Positions 15,422-26,281 of a DNA stretch of 26,281 nucleotides are shown here, piece by piece (the stretch's first letter is position 1; each line of letters begins with the position of its first letter). Source of the DNA: an uncultured Candidatus Saccharibacteria bacterium (lineage in GTDB: Bacteria; Patescibacteriota; Minisyncoccia; Sungbacterales; JACQCQ01); contig CAZOFN010000001.1 in NCBI GenBank assembly GCA_964579195.1, positions 1 to 26,281 on the forward strand. The letters are read 5' to 3'. The notes beneath the pieces were generated by a model, which saw nothing but the letters and a program-made list of their open reading frames with translations, had not been told where the DNA came from and did no database searches. The position numbers were made by a program, and so were the translations under genes.

Positions 15422-15547
15422 CCCCGCACTAAAATTTGAAGATACGGGCAATTAGCTCAGTGGTAGAGCGCGTCACTGATAATGACGAGGTCGGAAGTTC
15501 GATCCTTCCATTGCCCACTACTTCAGAGGTTCAAATTTAGTGCGGGG
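15422..15547. mobile_element. MITE-like insert with ~18-bp terminal inverted repeats enclosing a tRNA
   Basis: CCCCGCACTAAAATTTGAA (15422-15440) and TTCAAATTTAGTGCGGGG (15530-15547) are reverse complements apart from one extra A. Confidence 0.55.
15446..15517 (+). tRNA. tRNA-Ile(GAT), intact, CCA not encoded
   Basis: Acceptor GGGCAAT/ATTGCCC+A; D arm GCTC/GAGC; anticodon arm CGTCA-CTGATAA-TGACG; T arm GGAAG-TTCGATC-CTTCC. Confidence 0.96.
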
Positions 15548-22676: not shown

Positions 22677-23801
22677 ATGGAAGTGAGCTCGACTATGAAG
22701 AAAGGGGGTAAAGCAGTTTTTTTAGGAATGTCGGGAGGTGTTGACTCCTCCGTTGCCGCTGTGCTCTTGAAAAGAGAAGGCTATAACGTGAGAGGTGTTT
22801 TCATGAAAAATTGGGCCGACCCTAAGTATCCCTGCCCATGGGAAGATGACCGACGGGATGCCATGCGTGTTGCGGCAATACTCGATATTCCCTTCGAGAC
22901 GTGGAACTTCACTAAAGAGTATCGCGGCACGGTAGTGGAGTACATGATTCGCGAGTATGCAGCTGGCTGTACGCCAAACCCCGATGTCATGTGTAATCGG
23001 GAAATTAAATTTGGGTTGTTTTTGAGACGGGCCCTGAAAGAGGGTGCGGATTTTGTGGCGACCGGGCACTATGTAAAGAAAGTCCAAAGTCCAAAGTCCA
23101 AAGTCCAAAATTTGGCGATTGCAAAAGATTTAAACAAGGATCAGTCGTACTTTTTATGGACACTGACGCAAAATCAACTGCAACATAGTCTTTTTCCTAT
23201 TGGTAATTACTTGAAAAGTGAAGTTCGCCAAATCGCGCGCGAAGCCGGGTTGCCGACGGCAGAAAAGCCGGATTCGCAGGGAGTTTGTTTTGTCGGTGAA
23301 ATTGACGTGGCTGCGTTTTTGCGCGACCACATCCCAGCCAAACGAGGCTTGGTCGTTACGACAAGCGGAAAAAAAGTTGGCGAGCACGACGGCGCCATGT
23401 TTTACACTATCGGCCAGCGGCACGGGCTTGGCGTCGGCGGGGGCATTCCGTTTTACGTTGCCGCGAAGGATACGAGGACGAATACGCTCGTGGTTGCAGA
23501 GGGACCCAATGATGGAGAGCTTTTCCGTCGCGAGTTAATCGCCTCCGATTTGAATTGGATAAACGGTGAACCAAGGTTCCCGCTTCGCTGCGAGGCGCGT
23601 ATTCGCTACCGCCAGCCCCTACAAAAAGCTCGAATCATGAAGCATGAATCAGGCAGCAGGAAGCAGAAAAATTCCGTGATGCATGGTTCAAGTTTTATGA
23701 TTCATGTTGAGTTTGACAGCGAGCAGCGGGCAGTGACTCCCGGGCAGTCCGTTGTGTTTTATAAAGACGGGGTGATGCTGGGTGGCGGAATTATCTCCTA
23801 G
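22677..23801 (+). CDS. mnmA: tRNA 2-thiouridine(34) synthase MnmA (start may be 22695)
   Basis: GMSGGVDSSVAA, TPNPDVMCNREIKF, ATGHY, KDQSYFL, DSQGVCF, TIGQR and RAVTPGQ. Confidence 0.97.
   Translation: MEVSSTMKKGGKAVFLGMSGGVDSSVAAVLLKREGYNVRGVFMKNWADPKYPCPWEDDRRDAMRVAAILDIPFETWNFTKEYRGTVVEYMIREYAAGCTPNPDVMCNREIKFGLFLRRALKEGADFVATGHYVKKVQSPKSKVQNLAIAKDLNKDQSYFLWTLTQNQLQHSLFPIGNYLKSEVRQIAREAGLPTAEKPDSQGVCFVGEIDVAAFLRDHIPAKRGLVVTTSGKKVGEHDGAMFYTIGQRHGLGVGGGIPFYVAAKDTRTNTLVVAEGPNDGELFRRELIASDLNWINGEPRFPLRCEARIRYRQPLQKARIMKHESGSRKQKNSVMHGSSFMIHVEFDSEQRAVTPGQSVVFYKDGVMLGGGIIS
23079..23106 (+). repeat. Perfect (AAAGTCC)x4 heptamer repeat inside mnmA
   Basis: Encodes KVQSPKSKVQ between ATGHY and KDQSYFL. 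Confidence 0.95.
23633..23706. repeat. Degenerate inverted heptamer arrays inside mnmA
   Basis: AATCATG AAGCATG AATCAGG CAGCAGG AAGCAGA (23633-23667) and TGATGCA TGGTTCA AGTTTTA TGATTCA (23677-23704), in frame. Confidence 0.7.
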
Positions 23802-23876
23802 ATAAAGCCAGATACGGCTGGCTCCGCTACTCACAGGTTATCCATACGTTGTCCCCGAAACGGCTATTTTTGATAC

Positions 23877-23905
23877 TTGACGCGTCTTTTGCTGCGCGGT
23901 ACCTT
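23877..23905 (+). promoter_or_regulatory. sigma70 promoter of large RNA 1
   Basis: TTGACG, 17 nt, TACCTT. Confidence 0.7.
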
Positions 23906-23913
23906 TTCCCTAC

Positions 23914-24440
23914 GCAGCAGTACCTTCGATCGCTCAGTTCGCCCGGGGTAACTCGGGTGCAACAGGGCAGGAAGCAGTCGCCCAAGCAGAGTTCAGTGTT
24001 GAGAGGCTGCGAACCTCTCTCACTGAAACCTCCAGGGACGCGGTAGGTTGCCCATCTGCCGCGAGCAAACCCTGACGCACTGGGAAATGGTTCAGGCTGG
24101 GGTCAAAACCGGCCGGTTGGATTCCAGCATCGGCTGGCCAAGCCGATCAAGAACCACACCCAGGATGAATTCCCTGTCGCTCCATAAAGGTAAGAGAATG
24201 TCGCGAGATGTTCTGTGACCTTAAGTGGAGATCTCCGCAAGGAGGATACGTTCGTTCTTCGAAAGGAGAACGAAAAAAGACGAGGAGTTCGCGTATAGAG
24301 GTGAGAGACTTCCGGAATGTCTCTCGGACGGGTTAAGTGGTTGAGATAAGTGATCTGTTGAGATGTGGGGAGGCATCCACGCATTAAGATAGGTCGCGAG
24401 TCGCAACTAGCGAAACCGTAATCTGTCCCAGGGCTGCTGC
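23914..24440 (+). ncRNA. Large ornate structured RNA 1, ROOL-like
   Basis: Closed by GCAGCAG (23914-23920)/CTGCTGC (24434-24440), with more than 10 stems and GNRA loops (GTAA, GCGA, GCAA, GAAA) and no ORF. Segments CTCAGTTCGC, GGGGTCAAAA...TTGGATTCCAGC, TGTCGCTC..AAAGGT, TGTGACCTTAA, GGTTAAGTGGTTGAGA and GCGAAACCGTAATCTG match my recollection of ROOL in order; not checked by search. Confidence 0.72.
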
Positions 24441-24508
24441 TCTCCGAAACTCACTGGTCGAAGCTCGACCAGATACGTTCTAAGCCCTTCCTGGCGATGC
24501 CGGAAGGC

Positions 24509-24544
24509 CGCCTGGTGGTAACCCCGCCAGGCGTCTTCGTTTTT
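24509..24544 (+). terminator. Intrinsic terminator of RNA 1
   Basis: CGCCTGG.../...CCAGGCG stem followed by TCTTCGTTTTT. Confidence 0.7.
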
Positions 24545-24561
24545 AGGGAGACTTTTTATAC

Positions 24562-24589
24562 TTGACGGTTGTTTGTTATTTGGTACGAT
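24562..24589 (+). promoter_or_regulatory. sigma70 promoter of large RNA 2
   Basis: TTGACG, 16 nt, extended -10 TG-G-TACGAT. Shares ATACTTGACG with the RNA 1 promoter. Confidence 0.7.
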
Positions 24590-24595
24590 GCCATT

Positions 24596-25196
24596 ACTAT
24601 CGGAAGTACCGGTTTACAAAACGTCGTGTGGCCTCACGGTCACACATCAATGGTGGCGGCGGGTTAACACGCGCATGTGGCGTCAGACGCGGGCATGTGC
24701 AACGTGCGGTTCGAGCGCGTGTGCTCTACCTCCAACTCGCCGCCACCTCGTAGTTCTCTCAAAACGAATCTGACCGCGTGCCTCGGCGAAAGGTATCCCT
24801 AGTAGCCAAAGGCGCACGGCAGCAGGCAGGTAGCACGGCGTGGCGCCGTCGCGGGCCCTCGAAGAGGCGCGGGCAAGACCCCGAGTGTCCCCGCGCGTGA
24901 GAAACCGCCCCGATACCATGTTCGAAATGGGACTCACTCTGGCTAAGAGTCGCGGAGCCCATCCCTCCAGCGCGAGGGGGCGTCGCTCTCTAGACGACCC
25001 ACGTTCTCGCTCAGACGCCAGGGGTTTGGCCGAGGCTTGAGCCCTCCTCGGCACGCCAGGATGGGGGCAAGCACGACGACATCACGTCACACCGTGTTCG
25101 ACTGTACCGTTGTACCGTGTTCGTGGAGTGGGCCGTTCGCCACGCGCCCCACGTCCGGCTCTCTGCCTGCTCGTCTCTCGCCAGTACGGCTGGCAC
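24596..25196 (+). ncRNA. Large GC-rich structured RNA 2, family unassigned (weak GOLLD-like motifs)
   Basis: 14-bp stem 24652-24665/24734-24747, long-range AGCAGGCAG/CTGCCTGCT (24821-24829/25163-25171) and many nested hairpins. No credible ORF; bounded by a promoter and terminator. Confidence 0.65.
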
Positions 25197-25231
25197 CGCC
25201 CGTTCCTTCGGAACGGGCGTTCGACTTTTTT
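25197..25231 (+). terminator. Intrinsic terminator of RNA 2
   Basis: CGCCCGTTCC-TTC-GGAACGGGCG followed by TTCGACTTTTTT. Confidence 0.8.
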
Positions 25232-25270
25232 GGACAGCAAGAGAAGTTTTTGTTTGAATAACCGAGAGCC

Positions 25271-26281
25271 ATGAATGCGAATGAAATACGGAAAAAGTTT
25301 CTCGATTTTTGGGAGAAGCGCGGCCACGCCATTATTCCGTCGGCATCGCTTGTGCCGGAGGGTGATATTACTACGCTCTTTACCGGTTCCGGCATGCAGC
25401 CCCTCATCAAATATCTCTTGGGCGAGGCGCATCCAAAGGGAGTGCGTCTCGCAAATTCGCAAAAAAGTTTTCGTGCCGAGGACATTGACGAAGTGGGAGA
25501 CAACCGCCATACCACGTTTTTTGAAATGCTCGGAAACTGGTCTTTGGGAGATTACTTCAAAGAAGAGCAGCTTTCGTGGTTCTTTGAGTTTCTTACCGAC
25601 GAGGTTGGGCTTGACCCTCAAAAGCTCTACGTGACGGTATTTGCCGGAGATCCGGGGAATAACGTTCCCCGCGATGACGAGTCGGTCGCTATCTGGAAAC
25701 GGCTCTTTCAGGAGAAAGGGATAGAAGCGAAAGATGTCGAGCTGATTACCGAAGAGCGGGGAGGTGAGCTCGGCATGCAAAGCGGCCGCATTTTTTATTA
25801 TCAAAACAAAAACTGGTGGAGCCGCGCGGGGGCGCCAGCCAGCATGCCGCCGCACGAACCCGGCGGTCCGGATTCCGAAGTTTTTTATGAATTTACTGAT
25901 GTCCCGCACGATTCGAAGTTCGGCAAATTTTGCCATCCTAATTGCGACTGCGGCCGCTTTATGGAGATTGGGAACTCCGTTTTTATGGAATATGTAAAAA
26001 AAGAGGATGGCACATTTGAAAAGTTAGCGCAGCAGAATGTGGATTTTGGCGGGGGGCTTGAGCGGATCGCGGCTGCTTCTCGCGACGATCCTGATATGTT
26101 CAATATCGATCTTCTGAGACCACTTATGGAAGTATTACACTTTACTGATACCAATCGAAGGCACAAACGTATCATTGTCGACCATACCAGAGCGTCAGCA
26201 TTTCTTCTGGCCGATGGCGTACGTCCTTCTAATAAGGGAGCGGGGTATATTTTACGTCGTCTAATGCGACGCATTTTTACC
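25271..26281 (+). CDS. alaS: Alanine--tRNA ligase, N-terminal part (runs off the window, so absent from the ORF track)
   Basis: Hand translation from ATG 25271: MNANEIRKKFLDFWEKRGH...TTLFTGSGMQPL...RHTTFFEMLGNWSLGDYFK, later NVDFGGGLERI and PSNKGAGYILRRLMRR. Confidence 0.97.
   Translation, partial: MNANEIRKKFLDFWEKRGHAIIPSASLVPEGDITTLFTGSGMQPLIKYLLGEAHPKGVRLANSQKSFRAEDIDEVGDNRHTTFFEMLGNWSLGDYFKEEQLSWFFEFLTDEVGLDPQKLYVTVFAGDPGNNVPRDDESVAIWKRLFQEKGIEAKDVELITEERGGELGMQSGRIFYYQNKNWWSRAGAPASMPPHEPGGPDSEVFYEFTDVPHDSKFGKFCHPNCDCGRFMEIGNSVFMEYVKKEDGTFEKLAQQNVDFGGGLERIAAASRDDPDMFNIDLLRPLMEVLHFTDTNRRHKRIIVDHTRASAFLLADGVRPSNKGAGYILRRLMRRIFT

Follow-up and report, generated by a model that had tools for sequence, protein, structure and literature searches.

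What lies in the long gene-free stretch between mnmA and alaS in this member of the Candidate Phyla Radiation (CPR), and is it one of the giant RNAs already described from bacteria? To our knowledge, only a handful of bacterial non-coding RNAs exceed 500 nt and have a conserved complex fold, namely the rRNAs, group II introns, OLE, GOLLD, ROOL and HEARO, and each such large RNA has turned out to be biochemically unusual. For three of them, assembly into RNA-only structures has recently been demonstrated (PMC12286853), and the literature yielded nothing relevant on large RNAs in CPR. A sequence-only reading of the window, by which we mean the whole stretch of 26,281 nt analysed here, had placed a ROOL-like RNA in this gap. 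We propose a different assignment: positions 23877-24544 on the plus strand are, in our judgement, probably a stand-alone non-coding RNA gene of ~630 nt, RNA1, which founds an uncatalogued RNA family that we call class A.

The genomic setting agrees with much of that earlier reading. The source genome (G000) measures 0.82 Mb in 104 contigs, and the nearest named proteins to its MnmA by protein comparison are those of Candidatus Sungbacteria, so that the proposed CPR chromosome stands; the window stretch is identical to NCBI contig JACQMG010000019.1. Between the end of mnmA at 23801 and the start of alaS at 25271 (flanking genes by Pfam) there are 1,469 nt without a credible gene, and within this gap the scan, the fold and Pfam bear out a gene for a large multi-domain RNA that has a promoter-like site and a terminator of its own. 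The promoter-like site (23877-23905, plus strand) consists of a -35 element TTGACG at 23877-23882, a 17-nt spacer and a -10 element TACCTT at 23900-23905, which would put the start of RNA1 near 23912. This -10 element is weak, matching 3 of 6 consensus positions and falling below the threshold of the consensus promoter scan; a TTGAC(G/C) -35 element sits at the equivalent place in four homologs and in RNA2, the second RNA of the gap. At the other end, the consensus scan finds a 10-bp, G+C-rich terminator at 24509-24533 with a U-rich tail to 24544. None of the open reading frames within the stretch is matched by Pfam, the class A homologs conserve no reading frame, and RNA1 is without conserved coding potential. 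It is single-copy in the genome. The only tRNA of the window found with Rfam 15 at gathering thresholds is tRNA-Ile (15446-15518), 8.4 kb away, and the reported lack of phage genes nearby is borne out by the flanks, mnmA and alaS. Class A has no match in 50,697 GenBank phage records.

The plus strand of 23900-24545 folds with -298.4 kcal/mol against -225.7 +/- 7.9 kcal/mol for dinucleotide shuffles (z -9.25), compared with z -3.7 for the minus strand of the same region; the structure is thus strand-specific, as expected of an RNA. The four example stems quoted from the letters alone are all exact complements: 24129-24135/24141-24147 (ATCGGCT/AGCCGAT), the 10-bp stem 24251-24260/24265-24274 with its GAAA loop, 24303-24309/24319-24325 (GAGAGAC/GTCTCTC), and 23992-23998/24021-24027, which belongs to the hairpin that we call P2. 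A helix closing the RNA also exists as had been claimed, but its dimensions differ: instead of 7 bp around 527 nt, we find about 13 pairs, interrupted by two bulges, enclosing ~476 nt.

The identification with ROOL, on the other hand, does not survive. We took membership in ROOL as an RF03087 score at or above the gathering threshold of 99.1 bits. With Rfam release 15 (4227 families, ROOL included), the ROOL model run with permissive filters over 23700-25400 gave no match at E<=10, and RF03087 matched neither elsewhere in the genome nor in the homologous loci L004, L017 and L019; the same cmscan recovered the tRNA, and the control genomes were without ROOL. In the same interval and at the same E value there was no match to GOLLD, OLE, HEARO, raiA, T-box, RNase P, tmRNA, 6S, SRP or group I/II introns, and the two matches that did appear, Xoo1 and FsrA (E 8-10), are at chance level and lie outside the RNA body. 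RNA1 and ROOL are both stand-alone bacterial RNA genes of ~600 nt (ROOL averages 581 nt; PMC5737381) with many stems and multistem junctions and without an assigned function. ROOL, however, is often found in prophages or phages and near tRNA genes (PMC5737381, PMC12286853), whereas RNA1 lies between mnmA and alaS with no tRNA or prophage genes near it and without a match in phage records; ROOL hosts are Firmicutes, Fusobacteria and Tenericutes, whereas the class A host, a member of Patescibacteria, is outside this known range; and the three pseudoknots of ROOL, which forms an RNA-only homo-octameric cage (PMC12286853), are not seen in RNA1, where we find several predicted multistem junctions and one weak pseudoknot candidate. 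We therefore consider it extremely improbable that RNA1 is a divergent member of ROOL. GOLLD shares with RNA1 the character of a large, ornate RNA with variable and conserved parts, but it exceeds 800 nt and is linked to phages and tRNAs (PMC12286853), and RNA1 has no Rfam match to it. OLE (RF01071) is perhaps the closest analogy for the working mode of class A, that of a protein-binding scaffold, being a chromosomal RNA of ~600 nt at a fixed locus, vertically inherited within a narrow bacterial group; yet the two have no sequence or structure match, and no OapA/OapB-type gene adjoins the class A RNA.

If RNA1 belongs to no catalogued family, does it have a family of its own? BLASTN with RNA1 against 40 relatives found no homolog, and the mnmA loci of the relatives were therefore examined by synteny; in several of them mnmA lies beside alaS with a long gap between the two. 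Sensitive blastn and nhmmer searches of these loci gave a single short match of 25 nt, in G015 (JBBUDR010000088.1), which has the 13-nt block CCTGACGCACTGG in common with the window, and the G015 RNA aligns with RNA1 over its full length with many two-sided changes. A covariance model of the core (R1, window 24022-24166) matched L136, a Logan contig with a 71%-identical MnmA, at 13 bits, a weak score but exactly at the expected place. A second model, R2, from three sequences (window, G015 and L136), matched G001 at 37 bits (E 1.5e-6), ~360 nt downstream of mnmA, as well as L140/L141 at 23 bits, and a third, R3, from five distinct sequences, added G003, which is the same DNA as L140. Class A thus has members in five lineages, G000 (the window), G001, G003/L140, G015 and L136, all of them directly downstream of mnmA and on the same strand. 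Most true members are missed by nhmmer and blastn, L140 for example by nhmmer. Two weak class-level matches of R1, L107 and L108, were false, lying inside 700-aa reading frames.

The distribution of the family is narrow. Of 62 genomes from the order, model R3 matches 4, of which three belong to the family of the window (f1) and one to another (f4), and class A is absent from the other 58, which implies that the RNA is either dispensable or replaceable. With the same model there was no match among 150 other genomes sampled from the class, where scoring covered a part of the first-look candidates, and none among 100 other loci; these include 80 metagenome loci fetched via AlaS, in which blastn, nhmmer and R2 found no member either. 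When 185,579 species genomes were scanned for an exact pattern, the only hits were G015 and one chance match, the latter within an atpB-like reading frame of an Ottowia MAG. As far as searched, class A is confined to this Sungbacteria-type order, with a patchy occurrence inside it, and its primary sequence diverges very fast.

Compared across the members, the MFE folds keep the same order of elements, from P0 through P10 to the tail, in every one of them. RNA1 begins with P0 (23932-23968), a 5' hairpin with a GUAA loop that ends in the conserved GGGCAG and has its equivalent in G001, G015 and L136. The 5' strand of the closing helix, P1 (23970-23983), pairs with 24431-24445, the same helix being predicted in G001 and L136, and is followed in the fold by the junction AAGCAGAG (23984-23991) and by hairpin P2 (23992-24027), in which a U-A pair is replaced by C-G in G015. 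The 5' strand of P3, ACCUC (24028-24032), makes a long-range pairing with GAGGU at 24298-24302. The conserved core (24022-24166), to which models R1, R2 and R3 give 153, 149 and 122 bits, contains P4 (24033-24037 with 24070-24074), the junction ACGCAC (24075-24080), P6 (24080-24084 with 24159-24163) and P7 (24088-24093 with 24151-24156), the last two forming a three-way junction inside the core, and the hairpins P7a and P7b (24129-24147). There follow the P8 domain (24167-24293), with three hairpins in the MFE fold including the GAAA-capped 24251-24274, the 3' strand of P5 (GCG, 24291-24293), which pairs with CGC at 24076-24078, and the 3' strand of P3 leading into hairpin P9 (24303-24325), the whole of it spanning 24298-24325 and the P9 loop being the 8-nt palindrome UUCCGGAA. 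The MFE fold then gives the P10 domain (24326-24428) and the 3' strand of P1 (24431-24445). According to the scan, the fold and the helix script, the 3' tail (24443-24544) carries the conserved UCCGAAA, hairpins at 24454-24472 and 24486-24507, the terminator and the U-rich run. Several single-stranded pieces are conserved as well: GGGCAG, AAG(C/G)AGAG after the P1 5' strand, ACGCAC after P4, UCCGAAA after P1, and an A-rich linker that precedes the 3' strand of P3. The P9 loop of RNA1 may form a pseudoknot with UCCGAA (24443-24448), though support for it is weak, with p ~0.03-0.10 in three sequences and no such pairing in G015.

Over the 142 positions of the core, 95.7% of 116 cells are in standard pairs in the model-based alignment, with the reservation that the sample consists of five lineages, few and related, and that the alignments are fitted to the model; 14 of the 26 pairs have changed on both sides. 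All 500 shuffles fall short on each of the five measures, and sliding the partners by 1-3 columns lowers the paired fraction to 27-45%. A MAFFT alignment of three members was too poor for this purpose, and the model-based alignments and a script were used in its place, with P8 excluded from the helix evidence. In P3, 19 of 20 cells are paired across four sequences and three of the five pairs show compensatory changes, the variants being ACCUC/GAGGU, ACCAU/AUGGU, ACUAU/AUAGU and (U)CCAU/AUGG(U). P5 is CGC/GCG in all four sequences, and the extra pair of L136 matches the extra C of that sequence. According to the script, each of the four sequences retains P9 and the 3' tail hairpin, the tail differing in sequence in G015, and the class A order of P3, P5, P9 and UCCGAAA with the tail hairpin holds across the four. 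Because G001 and L140 stood outside the models that found them, their new compensatory pairs, UAGGG/CCCUA for CAGGG/CCCUG and CUAC/GUAG for CUGG/CCAG, offer a fair test. Compensatory change maintains the helices of class A even as the primary sequence becomes too divergent for BLAST to detect.

RNA1 is not alone in the gap. Immediately after it in tandem lies a second predicted unit, RNA2 (24562-25232, plus strand), with a promoter TTGACG-16-TACGAT (24562-24589), a 5' hairpin (24600-24612), a closing helix (24819-24834 with 25158-25172; duplex -21.7 kcal/mol) and a terminator at 25196-25219 followed by a U run; its predicted transcript of ~640 nt (24596-25232) has a GC content of 0.6 and a z of -3.3. 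The two units have the near-identical upstream motif TTTTTrATACTTGACG. BLASTN with RNA2 against 62 genomes returned nothing above noise. In G002 and G004 the same mnmA-alaS gap holds a different-looking RNA of ~520 nt, which we call class B, and in related Sungbacteria predicted class B RNAs of 400-560 nt are seen just upstream of alaS, in L004 (757-1500, minus strand), L019 (2206-2844), L137 (2430-2941) and L143 (4437-5106). The alignment of the class B sequences from L004 and L019 contains 123 predicted pairs, and the class B loci have no Rfam match. RNA2 resembles class B only at the 5' hairpin (plus UUUACAA) and at the closing helix, GCAGGCAG.../...CUCUGCCUGC. With class A, RNA2 and class B have in common the gap, the layout of promoter and terminator, and a GCAG-rich closing helix followed or formed by AAG(G/C)CAGAG; G001, a class A member, also shares with class B a P2-like hairpin whose loop reads GGGUAACC. 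The class A core of P4, ACGCAC and P6/P7, however, is not recognisable in class B, and no cross-match among class A, RNA2 and class B was obtained with nhmmer or covariance models. Classes A and B might be distant paralogs. Within one genus G003 carries class A and G004 class B, and the window holds both RNA1 and RNA2; the simplest reading is an ancestral tandem pair followed by differential loss. Going further, one may imagine that Sungbacteria-type CPR bacteria keep a "giant RNA slot" at mnmA-alaS, where RNAs of ~600 nt of classes A and B, distant paralogs or functional equivalents within a new kind of large structural RNA, alternate or stand in tandem. In 0.8-Mb genomes that seem to be without the entire SRP system, an RNA of this sort may serve an essential cellular task, and could do so as a ribozyme or by forming an RNA-only assembly; we put this forward as a tentative idea of rather low probability.

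The position of RNA1 between two tRNA-related genes on the same strand, with terminators just before alaS, raises the question of whether it could be a cis element, either a 3' UTR of mnmA or a T-box-like leader or attenuator of alaS. There is, however, no match to a T-box or any other riboswitch, RNA1 has its own promoter-like site, and alaS has one too (25230-25259, plus strand: TTGGAC, 18 nt, extended -10 TGtTTGAAT), overlapping the end of RNA2. The motif AAAATCTGnTTnAAT recurs before alaS in L004, L019, L136 and L143, and in these loci as in the window the extended -10 element comes right after the last terminator. RNA1 is moreover separated from alaS by RNA2 in the window and by a sigma-factor gene in G001, where the order is mnmA, RNA, sigma-factor gene, alaS. 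Given this intervening gene and the conserved promoter of alaS itself, RNA1 is not the alaS leader, and in most relatives the two genes are present but the RNA is missing; a cis element is in our view highly improbable. The patchy distribution, and the alternation of two large RNAs at one site within the genus of G003 and G004, might instead suggest that the RNA was left behind by a mobile or selfish element or travels with one, for instance as an intron-like RNA or as the guide RNA of a lost transposase. Against this, the RNA is single-copy and always at the same syntenic site, there are no flanking repeats and no nuclease or transposase reading frame, group I/II introns, HEARO and omega-RNA give no match, and the compensatory changes argue for selection on the RNA itself. 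A mobile origin thus seems to us quite improbable.

Could this gene then be a housekeeping RNA too divergent to be recognised, that is, SRP RNA, 6S RNA, RNase P RNA or tmRNA? Such a thought is encouraged by the fact that 6S and SRP RNA were not detected in the genome, and by a string in RNA1, GGAAGCAG, that recalls SRP helix 8. But GGAAGCAG is not conserved in the homologs, 6S RNA is an unbranched rod of ~180 nt, RNase P RNA and tmRNA are accounted for on contigs C22 and C13, and the RNA is missing from most relatives. The identity with SRP RNA was rejected on a further ground, the SRP components being undetectable in the genome: neither SRP RNA (RF00169, RF01854) nor the SRP54 M domain (PF02978) was found in G000 or in the relatives G001-G004 and G015, the SRP54/FtsY GTPase domain (PF00448) had no match above the cut-off in G000, G001 and G002 and none at E<=1e-5 in 61 genomes sampled across the class, and a six-frame motif scan of G000 showed no P-loop reading frame with DTxGR, while the controls for these searches were found in 14 of 14 cases and SecY in 5 of 5 (E ~1e-100). 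With neither an SRP54 M domain nor an SRP-type GTPase found, an SRP RNA would have no partner here. This absence may reflect either a real class-wide loss or genes that are hidden or missed. All in all there is next to no likelihood that RNA1 is one of these housekeeping RNAs. As a separate observation, the RNase P RNA of this genome (C22, 779-1452) is matched by RF00010 in pieces, at 60 bits against a cut-off of 100 bits, over model positions 60-219 and a second fragment, and probably carries large insertions.

Our consideration of what the stand-alone RNA1 does starts from its architecture. Judging from the promoter-like site and the terminator, transcription of RNA1 would start at its own promoter and stop at its own terminator, and the product would then act in trans as a compactly folded RNA. 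In the modelled fold, P1 would enclose ~476 nt comprising P2, the long-range P3 and P5, the core of P4, ACGCAC and P6/P7, the P8 and P10 domains and P9, with the 5' hairpin and the 3' tail flanking this body. A closed multi-domain body with invariant junction nucleotides is typical of compactly folded RNAs, and tertiary packing is suggested by the abundance of GNRA-type loops and A-rich junctions. By analogy, we suspect that the most probable role of RNA1 is that of a scaffold, or of a platform to which one or more proteins or other RNAs bind, following a logic of the OLE or 6S type, a mechanism suggested by architecture only; RNA1 might also be a ribozyme. Another scenario is that of an RNA-only homo-oligomer, a cage or a dimer held by kissing loops and A-minor contacts and unrelated to ROOL or GOLLD by sequence. 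RNA1 has the size and ornateness of oligomerising RNAs (PMC12286853), many GNRA loops, and a P9 loop that is the palindrome UUCCGGAA. This palindromic loop, however, is not conserved in G001, L136 and G015, the context is not one of phages or tRNA islands, and five sequences do not distinguish inter- from intramolecular covariation, and we regard self-assembly as unlikely and the scaffold as the better working model.

Whatever the mode of action, the large structured RNAs of class A form a small family that is new and evolves fast. A further family of this kind in the CPR would carry the giant-RNA class into a vast branch of bacteria, uncultured and with reduced genomes, in which devoting 1.3 kb to RNA genes is a considerable outlay. 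Structural biologists would also gain another target, one for which covariation data are already at hand. Since BLAST and nhmmer miss the fast-evolving members of class A, we suspect that many such RNAs of the CPR remain unseen.

A few minor observations from the same loci deserve mention. In the lineage of L128-L133 (for example L131, 2168-3675) the mnmA-alaS gap is ~105 nt, and a gene-free stretch of 1.5-1.9 kb lies instead between a DUF5679 gene and mnmA, with no similarity to class A or B. The structured spacers upstream of alaS in L036, L083 and L085 proved unrelated to class A; that of L085 (830 nt) has very long inverted repeats, with z -13 and the reverse strand more stable, and is probably a MITE-like insertion. 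As to alaS itself, the -10 element of the AAAATCTGnTTnAAT type ends ~8-12 nt before the start codon, and with so short a distance its mRNA may be leaderless or nearly so. Lastly, the MnmA matches of several relatives are split into two to three pieces near query residue 140 (for example G002:C5, G009:C4, G010:C24, G023:C2 and G028:C33), where a loop of the protein carries insertions of varying length across the order.
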